From Gemmatimonadales bacterium (GTDB lineage: Bacteria > Gemmatimonadota > Gemmatimonadetes > Gemmatimonadales > GWC2-71-9): a stretch of DNA of 64,000 nt. A program made the position numbers and the translations under genes. The stretch's first letter is position 1, and every line of letters begins with the position of its first letter. The stretch is from assembly GCA_036265815.1 (NCBI GenBank), contig DATAOI010000102.1, positions 45,194 to 109,193 on the forward strand, in the 5' to 3' direction. Under the pieces are notes generated by a model. The model searched no databases. It had not been told where the DNA came from and saw only the letters and a list, made by a program, of their open reading frames with translations. This document shows positions 20,552-30,271 of this stretch, one piece after another.

Positions 20552-21592
20552 GTGGCCACGCTGCTCCGCCTGACCGATCACGGCCTCTATTGCGAGGCCG
20601 GCGACTTTCACGTCGACCCGTGGGGCGCGGTGCCTCGCGCCGTGGTGACGCACGCGCACGGCGACCACGTGGCCTGGGGATGTGGCTCCTATCTGACCAC
20701 CACCTCCGGCCTGCCGCCGCTCCGCGCCCGGCTCGACCGGGATGCTCGGATCCGCGCACTCGCCTACGGCGAAGCCATCGTGATCAATGGCGTCCGCGTG
20801 TCGCTGCATCCCGCGGGGCACATTCTCGGATCGGCCCAGGTCCGGATGGAATACCAGGGCGAGGTCTGGGTCGTCTCGGGAGACTACAAGATCGACCCCG
20901 ACCCGACCTGCGCCGCGTTCGAGCCGGTGCGCTGCCACACCTTCGTCACCGAGTCGACCTTCGGCCTGCCAATCTACCGCTGGCCGCCGCAGCAGGAGGT
21001 ATTCGCCGAGATCAACGCCTGGTGGCGCGCCAACCAGCGCGCGGGCAAGGCCACGCTGCTCTTCGCGTACGCGCTGGGGAAGGCGCAGCGGCTGCTCGCC
21101 GGTCTCGATCCGTCGCTGGGGCCGATCTTCACCCATGGAGCGGTCGAGCGGATGACCCAGGCGTACTTGGCCGCCGGGGTCCAGCTTCCTCTCACTACCC
21201 ACGCGGCCACGGTGGAGCGCGGCGCCGATTGGAGCCAGGCGCTCGTGCTCGCCCCACCGTCCGCTGACGGCTCTCCTTGGACCCGGCGATTCGGAAACCA
21301 GGCGACGGGCTTTGCCTCGGGCTGGATGCTGGTTCGCGGCGCCCGCCGGCGGGGCGCGCTCGATCGCGGATTCGCCTTGTCCGACCACGTGGATTGGCCC
21401 GGTCTAATGGCCGCGATCGACGCGACCGGCGCCTCGCGGATCTGGGTCACCCACGGTTACTCCAGCGTGGTGGTCCGCTGGCTGCGTGAGCGGGGCCTCG
21501 AAGCTCACCTGGTCCAGACTCGCTTCGAAGGCGAACGGGACGACGAGGAGCGCGACGCCGACGCGGCCGTGGCCTCGCCGGAGTACCCATGA
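20552..21592 (+). CDS. Ligase-associated DNA damage response exonuclease (MBL/beta-CASP fold)
   Basis: GTG 20552 is in frame in track ORF 20234..21592, 1 nt after the upstream stop. Motifs VVTHAHGDHVAWG, VSGDYK, TFVTESTFGLPIYRWP, SDHVDWPGL, WVTHGY. Confidence 0.8.
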   Translation: MATLLRLTDHGLYCEAGDFHVDPWGAVPRAVVTHAHGDHVAWGCGSYLTTTSGLPPLRARLDRDARIRALAYGEAIVINGVRVSLHPAGHILGSAQVRMEYQGEVWVVSGDYKIDPDPTCAAFEPVRCHTFVTESTFGLPIYRWPPQQEVFAEINAWWRANQRAGKATLLFAYALGKAQRLLAGLDPSLGPIFTHGAVERMTQAYLAAGVQLPLTTHAATVERGADWSQALVLAPPSADGSPWTRRFGNQATGFASGWMLVRGARRRGALDRGFALSDHVDWPGLMAAIDATGASRIWVTHGYSSVVVRWLRERGLEAHLVQTRFEGERDDEERDADAAVASPEYP

Positions 21593-23190
21593 AAGCCTTC
21601 GCCCGGCTCTACACGGCGCTCGACGAGACCAGCGCGACCAGCGGCAAGGTGGCGGCGCTCGCCGAGTTCTTTCGTAGCTCGCCGCCGGGCGACGCGGCCT
21701 GGGCGATCCATTTTCTGATCGGCCGCCGCCCCAAGCGGCTGGTCGGGTCTCCCCGCCTCCGGACCTGGGCCGCGGCAGAGGCGGGAATTCCCGACTGGCT
21801 CTTCGAGGAGAGCTACCACGCCGTGGGCGATCTGGCGGAGACCGTGACCCTGCTGCTGCCCGATCGGGAGAGCTCCGCCGACCAGCCGCTCGCATGGTGG
21901 GTCGAGGAGCGGTTGATGACGCTGCGCGATCAGGACGAATCGGTGCAGCGCGAGATGATGCTGCGGGCCTGGCGAGAGCTCGACCGCTGGGAGCGCTACG
22001 TGTGGAACAAGCTGATCACCGGCAGCTTCCGCGTGGGGGTGTCTTCGGGGCTGGTGGTCCGAGCCCTGGCGGAGGTGAGCGGGGTGGAAGAGGGCGTGAT
22101 CGCCCACCGGCTGATGGGAGCATGGCATCCGACCCCAGAGTTCTTCCAGCGGCTGGTGGCCACCGACACCCGCGACGCCGACGTGAGCCGGCCCTATCCC
22201 TTCTATCTCGCGTACCCACTGGAGGACGATCCGGCCCTCCTGGGTGATCCCGCGGAATGGATGGCGGAGTGGAAATGGGACGGCATCCGTGCCCAGCTCG
22301 TCCGCCGCACGGGCCGCACATTCCTTTGGTCCCGGGGCGAGGAGCTTCTGAGCGGCCGCTTTCCCGAGGTGGAGCAAGCGGCCGCGCTGCTGCCGGACGG
22401 GACGGTGCTCGACGGCGAGCTCCTCCCCTGGGCAGAGGGCGGGCCGCTCCCCTTCGCACAGCTGCAGCGCCGGATCGGGCGGACCACGCTCGGCGCCAAG
22501 ATTCTGGCGGAGGTGCCGGTGGCACTGGTCGCCTACGACCTGCTGGAGGAGTCGGGCGAGGATCTCCGGGCGCTTGGGTTTCGGGAGCGCCGCCGCCGTC
22601 TCGCCAGGCTCCTGGAGCACATTCCCTCCGCGGGGCGACTGATGTTGTCACCAGTCATCCCGGCGGAGACCTGGGCCGAGTTGGCGGGGGCGCGGAGACG
22701 CGCCCGGGAGGTGGGAGCGGAGGGGTTGATGCTCAAGCGCCTGGAGAGCGCCTACGGCGTCGGCCGCCGCCGGGGCGATTGGTGGAAATGGAAGGTCGAG
22801 GCGCTCAGCGTGGACGCCGTGCTGATCTACGCCCAGCCGGGGAGCGGCCGGCGGGCCGGCCTCTTCACCGACTACACCTTCGGCATCTGGGATGGAGACC
22901 GGCTGGTGCCGTTCGCCAAAGCCTACACCGGGCTCAGCGACGAGGAGATCCGCCGGGTGGACGCCTTCGTCCGGCGGAATACGCTGGAGAAATTCGGCCC
23001 CGTGCGTACGGTCAAGCCCGAGCTGGTGTTCGAGCTCGCGTTCGAGGGCATTCAGCGCTCCAGCCGGCACAAGTCGGGCGTCGCGGTCCGGTTTCCCCGG
23101 ATGGCTCGCTGGCGTGACGACAAGCGGCCGGAGCAGGCGGACACGATCGAAACGGTGCGGGCGCTGCTGGGGCCGGGCGGCGGACAGTAG
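21589..23190 (+). CDS. ATP-dependent DNA ligase of the ligase-associated damage-response type
   Basis: 533 aa. Adenylation motif I EWKWDGIRAQLV (KxDG), then GEELLSGRFPE, VLDGELL, EGLMLKR and a C-terminal OB-fold domain. ATGA overlap with the exonuclease. Confidence 0.85.
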   Translation: MKAFARLYTALDETSATSGKVAALAEFFRSSPPGDAAWAIHFLIGRRPKRLVGSPRLRTWAAAEAGIPDWLFEESYHAVGDLAETVTLLLPDRESSADQPLAWWVEERLMTLRDQDESVQREMMLRAWRELDRWERYVWNKLITGSFRVGVSSGLVVRALAEVSGVEEGVIAHRLMGAWHPTPEFFQRLVATDTRDADVSRPYPFYLAYPLEDDPALLGDPAEWMAEWKWDGIRAQLVRRTGRTFLWSRGEELLSGRFPEVEQAAALLPDGTVLDGELLPWAEGGPLPFAQLQRRIGRTTLGAKILAEVPVALVAYDLLEESGEDLRALGFRERRRRLARLLEHIPSAGRLMLSPVIPAETWAELAGARRRAREVGAEGLMLKRLESAYGVGRRRGDWWKWKVEALSVDAVLIYAQPGSGRRAGLFTDYTFGIWDGDRLVPFAKAYTGLSDEEIRRVDAFVRRNTLEKFGPVRTVKPELVFELAFEGIQRSSRHKSGVAVRFPRMARWRDDKRPEQADTIETVRALLGPGGGQ

Positions 23191-23196
23191 TCTGGC

Positions 23197-23910
23197 TTAC
23201 GGCGTGGCCGGGGGCTCCGCGCGGAACGTGACCACCAGGGCGTCTCGGTAGGCGGGCTGCCCGGCGATGCTCACCTTCAGCGGGGTGACCCCATGCCAGA
23301 CCCGCCGGTCATCGAGGAGCACCGCGTCGAGCGGCTCCCGCAGCTCGAACGTGCCGAGCGGCCGTTGCTGCTCGTCGCCGATCGCGGTGACACCGCCGGC
23401 GACGTTGCGGCGCGCCACCAGCGTCACCAGCACCCAGTCGACGCCGTCGCGATGCATTCCCTCGGGCGTCGGCTTCCCTTCGTGCGCCCCGTCGGGCTCG
23501 ATCCGGAACTGGTGCATCTCGACGTGCCAGCGGTCGGGCACCGGGCCCTGGGTCGAGGCGGCGAACGCGCTGCGGCAGATCGCCAGGATCCGCTGGGTGA
23601 TCGGATGCGCAGCAATCAGGTCGGTGACCGGCTCGAACCACCGCTCGATGCCGCCGTTCAACGAATTGTAGGCCCGCTCCTGATAGTGGGGCTGGTGCGG
23701 CTTGCGGACGATGGTCGAGGCCGTGACCGAGAAGCAGCCGAACCGCCGCCGGCGATAGCGACCGCCATCCGCCATGAAATGATCGACGTCCAGCTCGTTC
23801 CAGCTCCTGGCGAACCCAGCCCAATCGGCCAGCGCTTCCGGACCAATGAGCCCCCGCAGCTCGGCGGCCGGCACGATGCGAAATCCCGGCTCCGGCACGC
23901 GAAGCTGCAT
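23197..23910 (-). CDS. 2OG-Fe(II) dioxygenase of the free-amino-acid hydroxylase type (2OG-Fe_Oxy_2-like)
   Basis: Track ORF 23197..24051. ATG 23910 gives MQLRVPEPGFRIV. The facial triad is visible: GMHRDGVD (HxD) and a distal RRVWHGVTP. Also YRRRRFGCF and YNSLNGGIER. Confidence 0.65.
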   Translation of the reverse strand: MQLRVPEPGFRIVPAAELRGLIGPEALADWAGFARSWNELDVDHFMADGGRYRRRRFGCFSVTASTIVRKPHQPHYQERAYNSLNGGIERWFEPVTDLIAAHPITQRILAICRSAFAASTQGPVPDRWHVEMHQFRIEPDGAHEGKPTPEGMHRDGVDWVLVTLVARRNVAGGVTAIGDEQQRPLGTFELREPLDAVLLDDRRVWHGVTPLKVSIAGQPAYRDALVVTFRAEPPATP

Positions 23911-23933
23911 CGGTGCCAACAGTCGCGCGCCCA

Positions 23934-25280
23934 TCAGCCGGCGGCTCGCAGGATCGCCGCAACCGACTGTTCGACGTCGGCGTCGGTGGTAGCCCACGAC
24001 GACACGCTGATGCGCATCGCTTCCCGCCCCTGCCATCGGGTGCCGCCACACCAGCAGACGCCGTCGCTCTGCAGCCGGGCGATGACCCGCCGGGTCTCGG
24101 CTTCGTCGCCGAAGGCCACCAGCACCTGATTCAGCTCCACCTCGTTCAGCACCTCCTGACCGGCCTCACGCAGCAGCTGGGCGATTCGGGCGGCGTGCCG
24201 GCAGCACCGCTCCACCAGGTCGGCCACGCCCTGGCGGCCGAGCTGCTGATACGCGGCCCACACGTCGACGCCGCGGGCCCGCCGGGAGCCGTCTGGGGAG
24301 TAGTGCATCGGATCGCGAATGCCCGAGGGCGGAAGATAGGCCGCGCTCATCGCCATGGCCGCGCGGAGCGACGACTGGTCTCGCACCAGCGCGATGCCGC
24401 AGTCGTAGGGAACGTTGAGCCACTTGTGACCGTCGGTGGCCCAGGAATCGGCATGGTCGAGGCCGTCGACCAGGCGATCGAGCGACGGCACCGCCCGGGC
24501 CCAGAGCCCAAACGCACCGTCGACGTGCACCCAGGCGCCCGCCTCATGGGCCCAGGCGCAGATCTCCCGTGCCGGATCGAACGCCCCGGTGTTGACGTTG
24601 CCCGCCTGGATGCAGACGATCGCGGGACTATCGAGCGGGGGGAAGGCCCCGGGCCGGATCCGGCCCTGGCCGTCGACCGGGAGCCGGACGACGCGATTCC
24701 GGCCGAGGCCCAGGAGGCCGAGCACCCGAACAACCGTGGAGTGCACCTCACCGCCGACCACCGCCGTGATCGGAGGCGCGCCGAACAGGCCATCGTTGTC
24801 GGCGTCCCATCCGGCCCGGCGCAAGATGGCGTGCCGTGCGGCGGCGAGAGCCGTGAAGTTCGCCATGGTGGCGCCGGTGACGAGGGCGCCCCCGCACTCG
24901 GGCGGGAGGCGGAGCAGCTCCACCGTCCATTGCAGCGCGATCTCTTCGATGACCGCGGTGGCGGGCGACATGCTGTGGAGGGCGCAGTTCTGGTCCCACG
25001 CCGTGGCGAGCCAGTTGGAGGCGATCGTGACCGGCAACGAGCTGCCGTTCACGAAGCCGAAGTATCGGCCACCGGCCGTGGCGATCGTGGCCGGCGAGGC
25101 CACCTCGTCGAGCAGCGCCAGCACCTGCCGGGGATCGGTGCCGGTGGCCGGGAGTGGGTGTCGCAGGCGGTCGAGCCCGGCGAGCGCGGCCGGGCTCGGC
25201 GCGACCGGGCGGGTCTCGAGCGATTCGCGGTAGCGGATGCCGCGCTGTGCGGCGTCCAGCAGGAGGTCCCGGAGCGGCAC
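23934..25280 (-). CDS. PLP-dependent group II decarboxylase-like enzyme (AAT fold type I)
   Basis: Track ORF 23934..25658. GC3 falls to about 58% between 25281 and 25334, so GTG 25280 (PLRDLLLDAAQRGIRYRESL) is preferred over ATG 25334. Motifs GGALVTGATMANFTALAAAR, HVDGAFG and PLP-lysine WATDGHKWLNVPYDCG. Confidence 0.75.
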   Translation of the reverse strand: MPLRDLLLDAAQRGIRYRESLETRPVAPSPAALAGLDRLRHPLPATGTDPRQVLALLDEVASPATIATAGGRYFGFVNGSSLPVTIASNWLATAWDQNCALHSMSPATAVIEEIALQWTVELLRLPPECGGALVTGATMANFTALAAARHAILRRAGWDADNDGLFGAPPITAVVGGEVHSTVVRVLGLLGLGRNRVVRLPVDGQGRIRPGAFPPLDSPAIVCIQAGNVNTGAFDPAREICAWAHEAGAWVHVDGAFGLWARAVPSLDRLVDGLDHADSWATDGHKWLNVPYDCGIALVRDQSSLRAAMAMSAAYLPPSGIRDPMHYSPDGSRRARGVDVWAAYQQLGRQGVADLVERCCRHAARIAQLLREAGQEVLNEVELNQVLVAFGDEAETRRVIARLQSDGVCWCGGTRWQGREAMRISVSSWATTDADVEQSVAAILRAAG

Positions 25281-25307
25281 CGGATGGGGAAGCGCTTTCC
25301 TAACCGC

Positions 25308-25351
25308 CGCAGTAGCGCTATCGTTGGCTCTCATGAAACAGAGTAGCAGTA
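25308..25351. promoter_or_regulatory. Candidate MocR operator: direct repeat C-NN-AGTAGC-NN-TA at 31-bp spacing
   Basis: cgcAGTAGCgcta at 25308-25320 and cagAGTAGCagta at 25339-25351, in the lower-GC 70-bp gap between the divergent decarboxylase and MocR genes. Confidence 0.3.
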
Positions 25352-26730
25352 TGTCCCGGTTGGTGCAACTGCTCCGGCGCGACATCGCCCGGCTGGAGCC
25401 GGGCAAGCGGCTGCCCTCGGTCCGGACGCTGATGGCCCGGCACCAGGTCAGCCCGGTCACCGTGCGCCACGCGGTCGCCACGCTGGTCAACGAGGGACTC
25501 ATCGACGCGCGGCCTGGCCATGGGACCTTCATCGCCGAGCGTTCTGTGGCACCGGCGGCCGTGGACTTCGGGTGGCAGGCGCTGGCCCTCGGTCCGGCCC
25601 GCGTCGCAGTCGACGCCATCGAAGCGATCCTGACTCCGCCGAGTGCGGGATCGGTCAACCTGGCCGGCGGCTATCCCTCGGAGGATCTGCAGGCGCTGTC
25701 GCTCGTGGCCACCGCGATGGCCCGCGCCGCCCGCCGGCCCGGCGTCTGGGGCCGGATGCCGCTCGAAGGCATCGAGCCGCTCCGGGCCTGGTTCGCCCAA
25801 CAGATTGGCGACCCGATCACCCCGCGCGAGGTCCTGATCTGTCCCGGGTCACAGGCCGCGATCACGACCGCCTTCGGCGCGCTCGCCAATCCCGGAGCGC
25901 CCGTGCTGGTCGAATCACCGACCTACCTGGGCGCCATGGTGTCGGCCCGGGCCGCGGGGCTCGAGCTCGTGCCCGTCCCGACCGATCGCGACGGGGTCAT
26001 CCCCGACCTCCTCGCACGAGCCTTCGCCCGTACGGGCGCCCGGCTCTTCTATGCCCAGCCCACGTTCGCGAATCCCACCGGCGCGTCGCTCTCGGTGGAG
26101 CGGCGTCGGCAGGTGCTGGACGTGGTTGCGTCGGCCGGCGCGCTCCTGATCGAGGACGACTGGTGCCGCGATTTGAGCCTGGAGCCCAACCCACCTCGGC
26201 CGCTGATCAGGAACGATCCCCACGGGCACTGCGTCTATCTTCGATCGCTCACCAAATCGGCAGCACCCGGGCTCCGGATCGGTGCCATCTGCGCCCGCGG
26301 CGCCGCGCTCACCCGGCTCGGCGCAAGCCGCGCCATCAGTGATTTCTTCGTGCCCGGTCCCATTCAGGAAGCCGCCCTCGAGGTGGTGACTTCCCCGGCG
26401 TGGCCCCGTCACCTGCGGGCGCTTCGGGCGGCGTTGGCCGAGCGCCGGGATCGAATGGCCGCCGGGGTCCGCCAGCATTTCGGGGAGGCCAGCCTGGCGC
26501 TGGTGCCGGCCGGAGGAATCCACATGTGGGTTCGGCTGCCGGATAAAGTGGACGACGTGGAGCTCGCCCGCCGAGCCGCCGCTGCCAGAATCCTGGTGAG
26601 CCCGGGCCGACACTGGTTCCCGGCGGAGGCGACGGGATCGTTCCTTCGGATGAGCTACGCGAGCGCCTCGCCCGAGGCGCTGGGGAGAGCGGTGGCGACG
26701 GTGGGCCAACTGGCGGCGCGGATGGCCTGA
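25351..26730 (+). CDS. MocR/PdxR/GabR-type regulator (GntR winged HTH fused to an aminotransferase-fold domain)
   Basis: ATG 25351 (MSRLVQLLRRDIARLEPGKRLPSVRTLMARHQVSPVTVRHAVATLVNEGLI), where GC3 rises. The earlier ATGs have low GC3. The AAT domain has LRSLTKSAAPGLRIG (PLP lysine). Confidence 0.85.
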   Translation: MSRLVQLLRRDIARLEPGKRLPSVRTLMARHQVSPVTVRHAVATLVNEGLIDARPGHGTFIAERSVAPAAVDFGWQALALGPARVAVDAIEAILTPPSAGSVNLAGGYPSEDLQALSLVATAMARAARRPGVWGRMPLEGIEPLRAWFAQQIGDPITPREVLICPGSQAAITTAFGALANPGAPVLVESPTYLGAMVSARAAGLELVPVPTDRDGVIPDLLARAFARTGARLFYAQPTFANPTGASLSVERRRQVLDVVASAGALLIEDDWCRDLSLEPNPPRPLIRNDPHGHCVYLRSLTKSAAPGLRIGAICARGAALTRLGASRAISDFFVPGPIQEAALEVVTSPAWPRHLRALRAALAERRDRMAAGVRQHFGEASLALVPAGGIHMWVRLPDKVDDVELARRAAAARILVSPGRHWFPAEATGSFLRMSYASASPEALGRAVATVGQLAARMA

Positions 26731-26805: not shown

Positions 26806-27627
26806 ATGGCGAATTTCATCTGCTCCACCTGCGGTACCCAGTACCCCGACTCGCCGCTTCCGCCCGAGCAGTGCGTCATCTGCACCGAGGAGCGGCAGTA
26901 CGTCGGCTGGAAGGGCCAGCTCTGGACTACCCTCGACGAGCTCCGACGGGATCACCGAAACAAGGTCGAAGTCGAAGGCCCGGGACTGGTAGGGATCGGC
27001 ACCGAGCCGGCCTTCGCCATCGGCCAACGGGCGCTCCACCTGCGGACAGCGGAAGGCGGGGTGCTGTGGGACTGCATCAGCCTGGTGGACGACGCCAGCG
27101 TCGCCGCGATTCAGACGCTCGGCGGGGTCCGCGCCATCGCCATCTCCCACCCGCACTACTACTCCTCGATGATCGAGTGGAGTCGCGCGCTGGGCGACAT
27201 CCCCATCTACTTGCACGCTGCGGATGCGCCGTGGGTGGTCCGGCCGGAGCGGCCCGTCGTCTTCTGGGATGGTCCGGCGCGGGAGCTCGCGCCCGGGGTC
27301 ACCTTGATCCACTGCGGCGGTCATTTCGCCGGCGGCACGGTCCTCCATTGGGCCCAGGGCGCGGACGGTGAGGGTGCGCTGCTCACCGGCGACATCATCA
27401 TGGTGGCCCAGGACCGCCGCACTGTGAGCTTCATGTACAGCTACCCGAATTACATCCCGCTGAACGCGGCGGCGGTGCGCCGCATCGGGGACGCGGTCGA
27501 GCCGTTCGAGTTCGAGCAGATCTATGGCGCCTGGTTCGGGCGCAACATCCTGAGCGCGGGGAAGCAGGCCGTCCGCTACTCGGTGCGCCGCTACCTTCAC
27601 GCCATTTCCCCGCGTGACATCCAATAG
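26806..27627 (+). CDS. MBL-fold metallo-hydrolase with an N-terminal 4-Cys zinc ribbon
   Basis: 273 aa. MANFICSTCGTQYPDSPLPPEQCVICTEE (CxxC...CxxC), ISHPHYYSSM (HxHxxx motif region) and HCGGHF. Confidence 0.8.
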   Translation: MANFICSTCGTQYPDSPLPPEQCVICTEERQYVGWKGQLWTTLDELRRDHRNKVEVEGPGLVGIGTEPAFAIGQRALHLRTAEGGVLWDCISLVDDASVAAIQTLGGVRAIAISHPHYYSSMIEWSRALGDIPIYLHAADAPWVVRPERPVVFWDGPARELAPGVTLIHCGGHFAGGTVLHWAQGADGEGALLTGDIIMVAQDRRTVSFMYSYPNYIPLNAAAVRRIGDAVEPFEFEQIYGAWFGRNILSAGKQAVRYSVRRYLHAISPRDIQ

Positions 27628-30271
27628 AGGCGGCGGCTCCGCGCTGGCGGTCGATCTGCGGCGGGCCCGTGCCGCACGGCGCCGGGCGGAGCGTGCATTG
27701 ACGCCTCCCGCCGCCCCCGCGCCACGGCCACGGGCTTGTCCCGTCGAATGCGGCGGGCGAGAGCCGCTCGAGTGCGTCCGCGAGTGGTTCGACCTGCACG
27801 ACTGGACGCCGTTCCCCTTTCAGGAGACTGTCTGGCAAGCCTACCTCAATGGTGAGAGCGGCCTGGTGCACGCTGCGACCGGCACCGGCAAGACCTACGC
27901 GGCATGGCTCGGGTCCGTGATGGAGTGGCTGCGGGACTACCCCGCGCCTGGCCGGCGGAAGCCGGCCGCTCCGCCCCTCCGAGTGCTCTGGATCACGCCG
28001 CTCCGGGCACTCGCGGTCGATACTGAGGCCGCGCTCCGCGCACCGGTCGAAGACCTCGGTCTTCCCTGGACGGTCGAGACCCGCACCGGCGACACCCCCG
28101 CGAGAATTCGCACACGCCAGCAGCAGCGGCTGCCGACAGCGCTCATCACCACGCCCGAGAGCCTGTCGCTCCTGCTTACCCGGGAGGACGCGGCCCAGCT
28201 CTTCGACCACCTGGAGCTCGTGGTGGTCGACGAGTGGCACGAGCTGATGGCCTCCAAGCGCGGAGTTCAGACCGAGCTCGACCTCGCCCGGCTGCGGCAG
28301 TTTCGACCGGAACTCCGCACTCTGGGGCTCTCCGCCACGCTGGGTAACCTGGAGGTCGCGCGCGACACGCTCCTGGGCGTCGACGCCGAGGGCGCGCCGA
28401 GGCAGGGACGGATCATCCCCGGGCTCGTGCCCAAGGCGCTGCTGGTCGATGCGCTGATCCCCGAGGCGATGGAGCGGTTCCCCTGGTCGGGTCAGATTGG
28501 CCTTCGCCTGCTGCCCGACGTGGTGCGCGCGATCGAGGAGGGGGAAACCTCGCTGGTGTTCACCAACACTCGCGCCACTGCGGAGCTCTGGTATCAGGCG
28601 CTGCTGGCCGAGCGTCCCGACTGGGCCGGCGTCATGGCGCTGCACCACGGCTCGCTGGACCGCGACACCCGCGAGTGGGTGGAGGATGGCCTCCGGGACG
28701 GCCGGCTCCGTTGCGTCGTGTGTACCTCCACGCTGGACCTCGGCGTGGATTTCACTCCCGTCGACCGGGTGCTGCAGGTCGGGAGCCCCAAGGCGGTCGG
28801 CCGGCTGATTCAACGGGCCGGACGGAGCGGCCATCAGCCAGGCTCGGTCAGCCGGCTCACCTGCGTCCCGACCAACGCCCTCGAGCTGGTCGACGTGGCG
28901 GCGGCTCGGGACGCGCTCGACGCCGGCTCGATCGAGGCACGCCGGCCGGTGGAACGCCCGCTCGACTTGCTTGCCCAGCACGCGGTGACGGTGGCGTTGG
29001 GCGGCGGCTTCCTGCCGGATGAGCTGTACCACGAAGTGCGCACCACCCGCTCCTATCGTGACCTGACCCGGCCGGAGTGGGCCTGGGTGCTCGACTTCAT
29101 CTCCCGCGGCGGCCAGGCGCTCGGCGCCTATCCGGAGTACAGCAAGGTGGTCGAGCGCGAGGGCCGCCTGGTGGTCGAGAGCCGCGCGGTAGCCTTGCGG
29201 CACCGGCTGTCCATCGGGACCATCGTGAGCGAGAGCGCGATGAAGGTCCAGTACCTACGAGGCCGAGCGCTGGGCACCGTAGAGGAGTCGTTCATCGCCC
29301 GACTCCGCCCGGGGGATCGGTTCACCTTTGCCGGCCGCGTGCTTGAGTTCGTGCGGGTGCGCGGGATGGTGGCGTACGTCCGGAAGACCAGCCGGTCGAG
29401 CTCCGGCGTCCCCCATTGGTCCGGCGCCCGCATGCCGATCTCGCCCGAGCTGGCCGCCGCGGTTCGCGACAAGCTGGACCAGGCCCGGAGGGGGATCTAC
29501 CGCGGCGCCGAGATGGAAGCAGTGCGCCCCATCCTCGAGCTGCAGGCCAGCTGGTCGCGCCTGCCTGCGCCCGACGAGCTGCTGGTCGAGCGGGTACGCA
29601 CCCGCGAGGGTCACCATCTTTTCTTCTATCCAGTCGAGGGCCGGCTGGTGCACGAAGGGCTTGCCGCGCTCTTCGCCTACCGGATCGCTCAGCTCGGCCC
29701 CATCTCCTTCACTCTCGCGGCCAACGACTACGGGCTCGAGCTGCTGTCGGCCGAGCGGGCGCCGCTCGATGAGGCCCTGGAGGCCGGCCTCCTCTCCAGC
29801 TCACACCTGCTGCATGACATTCCGGCGAGCCTCAACGCCGCGGAGCTCGCGCGGCGGCAATTCCGCGAGATCGCCCGAATCGCGGGCCTCATTTTCCAAG
29901 GGTACCCCGGAGTCAGCAAGAGTGTGAAGCAGGTGCAGGCGTCGAGCGAGCTGCTCTATGACGTGTTCGCGCGATACGACCCAGAAAACCTGCTGCTCTT
30001 CCAGGCGCATCGCGAGGTCCTCGAGCGCCAGCTGGAGCAGAGCCGGCTGGCCCGGGCGCTGGATCGGATCGGGAGCGGTCGAGTCACCGTGGTCGACGTG
30101 GAGCGCCCCACGCCACTCGCGTTCCCGCTGCTGGTGGACCGAGCGCGGGAGCAGGTGAGCTCGGAGAAGCTGCCCGACCGAATCCGCCGGATGATGGCTC
30201 CGCTGGAGCGCGCGGCCGAGAGAGTCCACTTCGCGCGGGGCAGCCGCCGCGGATTCCGGAGCGGAGCATGA
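27614..30271 (+). CDS. Ligase-associated DNA damage response DEXH-box helicase (Lhr-core-like)
   Basis: 885 aa. Motif I AATGTGKT, motif II VVVDEWHEL, motif VI QRAGRSGH, then a long C-terminal winged-helix region. GTG 27614 overlaps the MBL gene by 14 nt. The exact start is uncertain. Confidence 0.85.
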   Translation: MTSNRGGGSALAVDLRRARAARRRAERALTPPAAPAPRPRACPVECGGREPLECVREWFDLHDWTPFPFQETVWQAYLNGESGLVHAATGTGKTYAAWLGSVMEWLRDYPAPGRRKPAAPPLRVLWITPLRALAVDTEAALRAPVEDLGLPWTVETRTGDTPARIRTRQQQRLPTALITTPESLSLLLTREDAAQLFDHLELVVVDEWHELMASKRGVQTELDLARLRQFRPELRTLGLSATLGNLEVARDTLLGVDAEGAPRQGRIIPGLVPKALLVDALIPEAMERFPWSGQIGLRLLPDVVRAIEEGETSLVFTNTRATAELWYQALLAERPDWAGVMALHHGSLDRDTREWVEDGLRDGRLRCVVCTSTLDLGVDFTPVDRVLQVGSPKAVGRLIQRAGRSGHQPGSVSRLTCVPTNALELVDVAAARDALDAGSIEARRPVERPLDLLAQHAVTVALGGGFLPDELYHEVRTTRSYRDLTRPEWAWVLDFISRGGQALGAYPEYSKVVEREGRLVVESRAVALRHRLSIGTIVSESAMKVQYLRGRALGTVEESFIARLRPGDRFTFAGRVLEFVRVRGMVAYVRKTSRSSSGVPHWSGARMPISPELAAAVRDKLDQARRGIYRGAEMEAVRPILELQASWSRLPAPDELLVERVRTREGHHLFFYPVEGRLVHEGLAALFAYRIAQLGPISFTLAANDYGLELLSAERAPLDEALEAGLLSSSHLLHDIPASLNAAELARRQFREIARIAGLIFQGYPGVSKSVKQVQASSELLYDVFARYDPENLLLFQAHREVLERQLEQSRLARALDRIGSGRVTVVDVERPTPLAFPLLVDRAREQVSSEKLPDRIRRMMAPLERAAERVHFARGSRRGFRSGA

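Follow-up and report, generated by a model that had tools for sequence, protein, structure and literature searches.

A MocR-linked decarboxylase and PF10014 dioxygenase pair in a Gemmatimonadales genome: a candidate inducible route from a free amino acid to a hydroxy-amine

Within a 64,000-nucleotide stretch of contig DATAOI010000102.1 of a Gemmatimonadales bacterium (hereafter the window, ~70% G+C), three genes at 23197–26730 encode an Fe(II)/2-oxoglutarate dioxygenase, a pyridoxal 5'-phosphate (PLP)-dependent amino-acid decarboxylase and, divergent from both, a MocR-type regulator. The pairing of decarboxylase and dioxygenase is real, old and maintained, yet it is a minority arrangement of both families. 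The three proteins belong to known families (PF10014, group II of PF00282 and MocR), and none of them belongs to a characterised equivalog. We propose, with middling confidence, that the trio, once induced, converts a free L-amino acid to a hydroxy-amine in two steps. The genes and their control region are as follows:

23197..23934, minus strand: PF10014 (2OG-Fe_Oxy_2) Fe(II)/2-oxoglutarate dioxygenase, 245 aa, recognised from Pfam, the match to 3PL0 and an AlphaFold2 model
23934..25280, minus strand: group II PLP-dependent amino-acid decarboxylase, 448 aa from GTG 25280, recognised from Pfam PF00282 and aligned catalytic residues
25281..25350, no strand: divergent control region, 70 bp, with boxes conserved across MocR-linked loci
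25351..26730, plus strand: MocR-subfamily regulator (GntR winged helix plus fold-type I aminotransferase-like PLP domain), recognised from Pfam and 2EGY

The full trio was found in nine fully covered loci (the window, L083, L167, L168, L171, L173, G627, G522 and G457) as well as on partial contigs, and these loci span Gemmatimonadota and Acidobacteriota in at least four different genomic contexts. L083 holds a complete trio whose proteins are 73–80% identical to those of the window, short contigs (L084–L086) carry the decarboxylase and dioxygenase, and the Vicinamibacterales contigs L167, L168, L171 and L172, together with L173, carry trios in which the genes overlap by 4 nt or lie 8 nt apart. 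The decarboxylase–dioxygenase junction is a 1–4 nt overlap or an 8–10 nt gap in every paired locus with gene calls, and the start/stop overlaps are kept between lineages whose dioxygenases are ~55–60% identical. A divergent MocR gene is present in all three paired Vicinamibacteria genomes that were examined over a longer stretch. On the dioxygenase tree, pairing occurs in three diverged clades, and the paired label needs 2 changes, compared with ~10.5 when labels are shuffled. No fused decarboxylase–dioxygenase protein was present among 24 longer homologues, which is weak evidence; these longer proteins are fusions or read-through calls with mechanosensitive-channel, luciferase-like, MetE-like or PALP domains.

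The dioxygenase matches PF10014 with 221 bits against a cut-off of 23.1, over profile positions 2–192 of 192 (open reading frame (ORF) 23200–23937, minus strand), and its HRD...H triad (HxD...H) consists of H162, D164 and H215 in the numbering of the 246-aa translation, in agreement with the original prediction of a 2-oxoglutarate/Fe enzyme. A putative 2-oxoglutarate-binding R231 lies 16 residues past the distal H215, a His-to-Arg spacing equal to that of H251 and R267 in GlbB (PMC9951290), and all four residues are invariant in 21 dioxygenase homologues. The AlphaFold2 model, computed from an alignment (mean pLDDT 87.8), shows PF10014's double-stranded beta-helix fold and matches all eight structure entries of the family at Z 22–28, against Z 13 for prolyl hydroxylases, the next fold class. 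The solved PF10014 matches are 3PL0 (MpDO), 8W8H, HrmJ (9DQP, 9DQ0), IDO (6LNH), TqaL (7EEH) and BelL (8JMS); since the enzyme groups with these at such scores, it does not fall into a non-amino-acid clade. The closest solved structure is 3PL0 (E 4.4e-44 by sequence; Z 28.1, 38% identity over 229 residues), which shares the HxD...H triad and the distal Arg. MpDO (Mpe_A2762) has no assigned substrate, and its proteobacterial relatives do not stand beside a decarboxylase. IDO matches only at E 2.4e-11, and an assignment as IDO or HilB equivalog is ruled out by a score of 25.9 bits against the HilB model NF042428 (cut-off 350). A comparison with IDO/LDO-type hydroxylases had been suggested as a check; the resemblance holds at the level of family and fold, but within PF10014 the enzyme lies, as judged from these matches, in an MpDO-like clade.

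The gene upstream of the dioxygenase matches PF00282 (Pyridoxal_deC) with 127 bits against a cut-off of 27. Its DGHKW motif aligns with the PLP lysine of the solved decarboxylases 4OBU, 4RIT and 7XIN, and the stacking His (EVHST), the Asp (HVDGAFG) and the catalytic-loop Tyr (AAYLPP) align with the same structures. Because all four residues are conserved, the product looks like a true decarboxylase, and its earlier designation as a group II PLP decarboxylase is upheld. The group II assignment is as far as its placement among characterised types goes, given that no named equivalog cut-off in NCBIfam is reached (RhbB 99.3 vs 900, PanP 93.9 vs 606, MfnA 58.8 vs 299, TyrDC 27.6 vs 905). The best PDB matches are of aromatic/hydrophobic types (4OBU, DDC), ahead of the GAD, CSAD and DABA types by small margins. 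The top structural relatives, the aromatic-L-amino-acid/tryptophan decarboxylases 4OBU, 7XIN and 1JS3, share the catalytic Lys, His, Asp and loop Tyr but are distant, at E ~1e-29 only. Members of the decarboxylase family are widespread in the phylum, in 92 of 401 genomes; these copies stand alone and are at most 64% identical, save one at 76%. Conserved neighbours of the wider family, which include rimP-nusA and a CSS-motif protein, give no pathway clue.

The third protein combines PF00392 (GntR) with PF00155 (Aminotran_1_2; ORF 25333–26727, plus strand), keeps the PLP-lysine motif SLTKSAAPGLRIG and has a LysN-like sensor domain (2EGY, E 1.4e-41), so that its recognition as a MocR-type regulator, a GntR winged helix fused to an aminotransferase-like domain, stands. 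None of the named MocR equivalogs in NCBIfam is reached (PdxR 210.8 vs 320, YczR 207.8 vs 487, EhuR 171.4 vs 480, MocR 142.8 vs 650, GabR 56.7 vs 600); indeed, none of the three trio proteins reaches any NCBIfam equivalog cut-off, and the ESM Atlas yields generic family names only. At L173 (4475–6017), gene calling splits MocR into a 303-aa aminotransferase-like portion and a 209-aa ORF of its own, with the tblastn match limited to residues 156–454; this regulator may be frameshifted or decaying.

The extent of the control region depends on the gene starts. The longest ORFs of the decarboxylase (ATG 25334) and MocR (ATG 25333) would overlap at TCATGA. G+C at third codon positions falls to 0.56 in 25281–25334 and 0.50 in 25333–25350, against 0.85–0.89 in the gene bodies (0.89 in the decarboxylase), and in homologues that do not belong to a trio, the alignment to the long decarboxylase ORF begins only at about residue 20. 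For these reasons, the most likely starts are GTG 25280 for the decarboxylase and ATG 25351 for MocR, and the longest decarboxylase ORF is probably over-extended. The divergent arrangement across 70 bp described earlier is thereby retained, with the spacer at 25281–25350. The junction between the two enzymes, on the other hand, had been given as a 23-nt gap, which corresponds to a second in-frame ATG at 23910. This ATG is not kept in an 82%-identical homologue (P0002), whose N-terminus aligns from the first ATG; the most likely dioxygenase start is therefore ATG 23934–23932, which shares its A with the decarboxylase stop codon (TGATG) and gives a 1-nt overlap instead.

We compared the spacer, in the decarboxylase direction, across 11 loci from both phyla, of which 10 were aligned and the window copy was located by pattern and compared by eye. 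Four elements were placed in the window:

25342–25349, read on the minus strand: box A, CTGCTACT
25331–25336, read on the minus strand: palindrome TCATGA
25311–25322, read on the minus strand: box B, GATAGCGCTACT
25288–25300, read on the minus strand: palindromic box C, GGAAAGCGCTTCC

The 10 MocR-linked loci align without gaps across the spacer and contain invariant blocks. Box A has the consensus (G/A)CTG(C/T)TA(C/T), followed by an invariant CATGA, and box B the consensus (C/G)(G/A)(A/T)(T/A)A(G/A)CGCTA(C/T). GCTAC direct repeats are exactly 31 bp apart in the compared loci (GCTACT in the window), and a palindrome, GGAAGCGCTTCC or GAAAGCGCTTTC, lies immediately upstream of the decarboxylase start in these loci. 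The G+C content of the spacer is 0.56, as opposed to 0.72 in the genes. The decarboxylase start of L087 and L088 lies further downstream and in another frame, and the same boxes are kept although they are non-coding there, which argues that conservation acts at the DNA level. The commonest MocR operator layout consists of two direct boxes plus an inverted one at whole-helical-turn spacing (PMC5320631), and the spacer, with direct repeats at whole helical turns and palindromes, fits this layout. We therefore predict that the conserved boxes are a candidate MocR operator. No sigma-70-like promoters or intrinsic terminators were detected at the trio, and there was no Rfam match. The MocR regulons of GabR, PdxR, TauR and EhuR/EnuR show the same features, namely a GntR winged helix with an aminotransferase-like PLP domain, divergence from a PLP enzyme gene, and an inverted element in addition to direct repeats that are spaced by three helical turns. 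The window regulator differs from these in its target operon, a decarboxylase plus a PF10014 dioxygenase, which is not among the regulons of PMC5320631; no description of a MocR-controlled operon of this composition was found in the literature searched.

Comparison with same-genus genomes indicates that the trio is a 3.6-kb insert splitting a repair cluster of ligase, metallo-beta-lactamase (MBL)-fold and Lhr helicase genes, because the flanking genes adjoin in these genomes: the ligase is followed by the MBL/Lhr genes at a spacing of ~0–1260 nt (mostly ~50–250), with none of the trio between. The borders in the window are:

21589..23190, plus strand: ATP-dependent DNA ligase (Pfam), left border of the insert
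26806..27627, plus strand: 273-aa ORF, right border of the insert, placed by its position before the Lhr-type helicase
27614–30271: Lhr-type helicase, which follows the right border, with Lhr domains in Pfam

The ligase and dioxygenase genes are convergent, with a gap of 6 nt. Homologues of the 273-aa ORF follow the ligase in same-genus relatives without the three genes; this ORF has no Pfam match, and its MBL-fold label is not confirmed by Pfam. Among 401 genomes sampled from the phylum, the dioxygenase was detected only in that of the window, and in none of 24 other genomes of the genus. On one metagenome contig (L082), the same ligase has a dioxygenase of 82% identity next to it, suggesting that the insertion is common to a small lineage. 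Neither flanking direct or inverted repeats nor mobility genes were detected at the insert ends. This history also bears on whether the three genes are simply unrelated neighbours. Most homologues of each enzyme are unpaired, as chance adjacency would have it; set against this, the same three genes recur in the same order and with the same operator in at least four contexts and two phyla, and in the window genome they arrived jointly as one insert. With joint insertion and recurrence together excluding it for practical purposes, chance adjacency is the most improbable of the explanations that we considered.

The reading we prefer is that the three genes would constitute a self-contained, horizontally mobile and substrate-inducible module. 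MocR would bind the conserved repeats in the 70-bp spacer, with the substrate or the amine product as the amino compound sensed by its PLP domain, and would thereby control a translationally coupled decarboxylase–dioxygenase operon. The PF10014 enzyme would hydroxylate a free L-amino acid with Fe(II), 2-oxoglutarate and O2, and the group II decarboxylase would strip the alpha-carboxylate from the same carbon skeleton, the net conversion being from an amino acid to a hydroxylated primary amine, CO2 and succinate. We lean slightly towards both enzymes acting on one carbon skeleton. The likeliest order, in which hydroxylation comes first and the decarboxylase tolerates the hydroxyl group, is put forward more tentatively. 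The proposal that the pair converts an amino acid to a hydroxylated amine thus keeps its support from intact enzymes and conserved tight coupling, but the product roles attached to it do not: an osmolyte, signal or siderophore precursor was suggested originally, and the insert contains no biosynthetic or transport genes.

Judging from precedent within the family, the dioxygenase would act on a free amino acid. IDO, LdoA, MFL, GOX, AVI and BPE (C4/C5 hydroxylases of Ile, Leu and Thr), HilB, GlbB, TqaL, HrmJ and BelL all belong to PF10014 and act on free L-amino acids, as the PDB entry titles of IDO, TqaL, HrmJ and BelL also state. Val and 6-nitronorleucine are known substrates among these four enzymes. 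The earlier statement that the family holds hydroxylases of free Ile and Leu is confirmed by the literature, which adds Thr (PMC3684760), and GlbB is a Lys 4-hydroxylase of free lysine (PMC9951290). The characterised enzymes share the fold of the window dioxygenase (Z 22–26), although their identity to it is only 20–30%, and no partner decarboxylase or MocR regulator was reported for them in the literature searched. Gene context adds to this precedent. In the sister clade of the paired Vicinamibacteria dioxygenases, same-strand clusters join the dioxygenase to a luciferase-like monooxygenase, an APC amino-acid permease and a class I/II aminotransferase, and in one genome a sodium:solute symporter lies directly upstream. 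With such neighbours, the substrate is more likely to be an amino acid imported in free form than an amine, and by analogy with family and sister genes the window dioxygenase would oxidise a free L-amino acid as well.

Several observations weigh against the proposed route. None of the 80 nearest reference-genome dioxygenase loci (49–62% identical; 79 from Pseudomonadota, mostly Alphaproteobacteria) has a decarboxylase or MocR gene within 8 kb, and none of 80 metagenome decarboxylase loci (52–67% identical) is paired with a dioxygenase, while two of the latter (L087 and L088) have a divergent MocR gene but no dioxygenase. Among 301 sampled Vicinamibacteria genomes, 30 contain the dioxygenase, and only 6 of these 30 loci are paired with a decarboxylase; in the 17 cases of at least 55% identity, the dioxygenase follows a decarboxylase in 6, precedes a luciferase-like monooxygenase in 7 and does neither in 4. 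The conserved co-occurrence on which the original prediction was staked is accordingly borne out for a sub-clade, with the trio in nine full loci and two phyla, but not for the families at large. Furthermore, decarboxylases that are 75–76% identical to that of the window are translationally coupled to gamma-glutamyltranspeptidase (GGT) and lack a dioxygenase. The insert contains no transporter or downstream enzyme. HrmJ and TqaL, which are PF10014 members with the same triad, can also cyclise their substrates, and hydroxylation is only the default expectation. Finally, the decarboxylase probably takes an ordinary amino acid, as the GGT-coupled relatives and the MocR–decarboxylase pairs without dioxygenase suggest, in which case the dioxygenase could equally act after it.

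This last point leads to the main rival, the reverse order, in which the decarboxylase would first turn an ordinary amino acid into a common amine, to be hydroxylated afterwards by the dioxygenase. If the attack were next to the nitrogen, oxidative deamination to an aldehyde would follow, and the module would serve amine removal or catabolism; TauD oxidises taurine in a comparable manner, releasing an aldehyde. The decarboxylase tree lends some weight to this order: MocR-, dioxygenase- and GGT-linked forms make up one clade (Shimodaira–Hasegawa-like approximate likelihood ratio test 99), with the GGT-coupled decarboxylases nested among the paired ones, and MocR plus decarboxylase, which exist without the dioxygenase in L087 and L088, appear as the wider core to which the dioxygenase is attached as the distal gene of the operon. 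Relatives of the decarboxylase sit amid genes for peptide and amide hydrolases (GGT, amidohydrolase, PF00144, and M20 and M28 families), a neighbourhood that suggests an ordinary amino acid, freed from peptides or amides, as its substrate. Against the reverse order, a free alpha-amino acid is required by all PF10014 enzymes characterised so far, and dioxygenases of 55–62% identity occur without a nearby decarboxylase, some of them beside the amino-acid permease and aminotransferase described above. On balance, we consider the reverse order unlikely.

The hydrolase neighbourhood could also be accommodated if both enzymes were co-induced by one amino compound and acted on it independently, for instance as alternative ways to get rid of a toxic or non-proteinogenic amino acid acquired from soil. 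Elsewhere each family works without the other, as such parallel action would allow. The start/stop overlaps, kept across lineages at ~55–60% identity, suggest stoichiometric co-production of the kind that consecutive steps would call for, and we regard parallel action as quite unlikely. A further alternative is that the trio makes a building block for a secondary metabolite, much as GlbB, HrmJ and BelL provide non-ribosomal peptides with unusual amino acids. HrmJ and BelL, whose structures are the closest among characterised enzymes, are indeed biosynthetic; even so, no non-ribosomal peptide synthetase, polyketide synthase, ligase or exporter for such a product stands beside the trio in the window or at the other trio loci whose surroundings were inspected. 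Here the trio is flanked by DNA-repair genes; in Vicinamibacterales it lies next to genes for a TatT-type TRAP transporter, an AraC regulator and a small member of the glyoxalase family. A secondary-metabolite role seems very unlikely.

Returning to sequential action with hydroxylation first, the clue to a particular substrate comes from the Acetobacteraceae, in which 167 of 201 genomes have a homologue, nearly always single, at 47–62% identity to the window dioxygenase. GOX, the PF10014 enzyme of Gluconobacter oxydans, is reported to be an L-leucine C4-hydroxylase with a kcat/Km of 66 per mM per min (Smirnov et al., 2012, as cited in PMC8948231). From the one-copy-per-genome pattern, GOX is probably a member of the same MpDO-like orthologous group; the leucine link made through it comes from this genome pattern, which is another point to be set against the proposed route. 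An aliphatic amino acid is the likeliest substrate class, with leucine as the lead, but this is a doubtful assignment for the module. The closest precedent for the chemistry is the cascade of KDO, a clavaminate-synthase-like lysine dioxygenase, with a PLP decarboxylase, which yields hydroxy-cadaverines by the same two-step logic (Baud et al., 2017, cited in PMC9288024). It relies on another dioxygenase family, is known mainly from biocatalysis and has no MocR control.

If the two enzymes act in sequence, they would be a naturally matched pair that turns an amino acid into a chiral amino alcohol, supplied with an inducible regulator and operator of use for biocatalysis and biosensors. The large MpDO-like clade of PF10014, with its thousands of homologues and a single copy in most Acetobacteraceae, would then also gain its first physiological context. 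A bolder reading, to which we attach a low probability, is that the trio is an undescribed mobile, self-regulated pathway of soil Acidobacteriota and Gemmatimonadota that produces or breaks down one particular hydroxy-amine, such as 4-hydroxy-isopentylamine derived from leucine. Either the substrate of this PF10014 clade would then be new to the family or the amine would represent a new family activity, and MocR would be a ready-made sensor for that compound. Ecologically, a tiny regulated cassette appears to have moved between soil phyla and to have landed in a DNA-repair operon without a visible mobility gene.

Other gene partners were noted around relatives of both enzymes. In L169 (5349–8365), L170 and L174 (2323–5354), a signal-peptide-bearing GGT gene overlaps (ATGA) the start of a 75–76%-identical decarboxylase gene, and the pair is followed by amidohydrolase or small unknown genes. 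Genes of PF00144 (beta-lactamase/serine hydrolase family) adjoin same-clade decarboxylases without a dioxygenase in L088 (2254–3795) and L205 (3087–4502). Among relatives of the dioxygenase, the Vicinamibacteria loci L005 (7959–12159) and L258 (4907–12912) present the series of an SSF symporter (not in every case), PF10014 dioxygenase, luciferase-like monooxygenase, APC permease and class I/II aminotransferase. The dioxygenase directly follows an ~835-aa MscK/MscM-like channel gene, at about -18 nt, in 32 of the 80 proteobacterial loci (among L002–L081, e.g., L035:5513–8017), and several database proteins are called as mechanosensitive channel–dioxygenase fusions. Lastly, 627-aa proteins of giant viruses (Nucleocytoviricota), which form a 160-member ESM Atlas cluster, join PF10014 to an Aminotran_5 PLP domain and are thus a natural fusion of a PF10014 dioxygenase with a fold-type I PLP enzyme.

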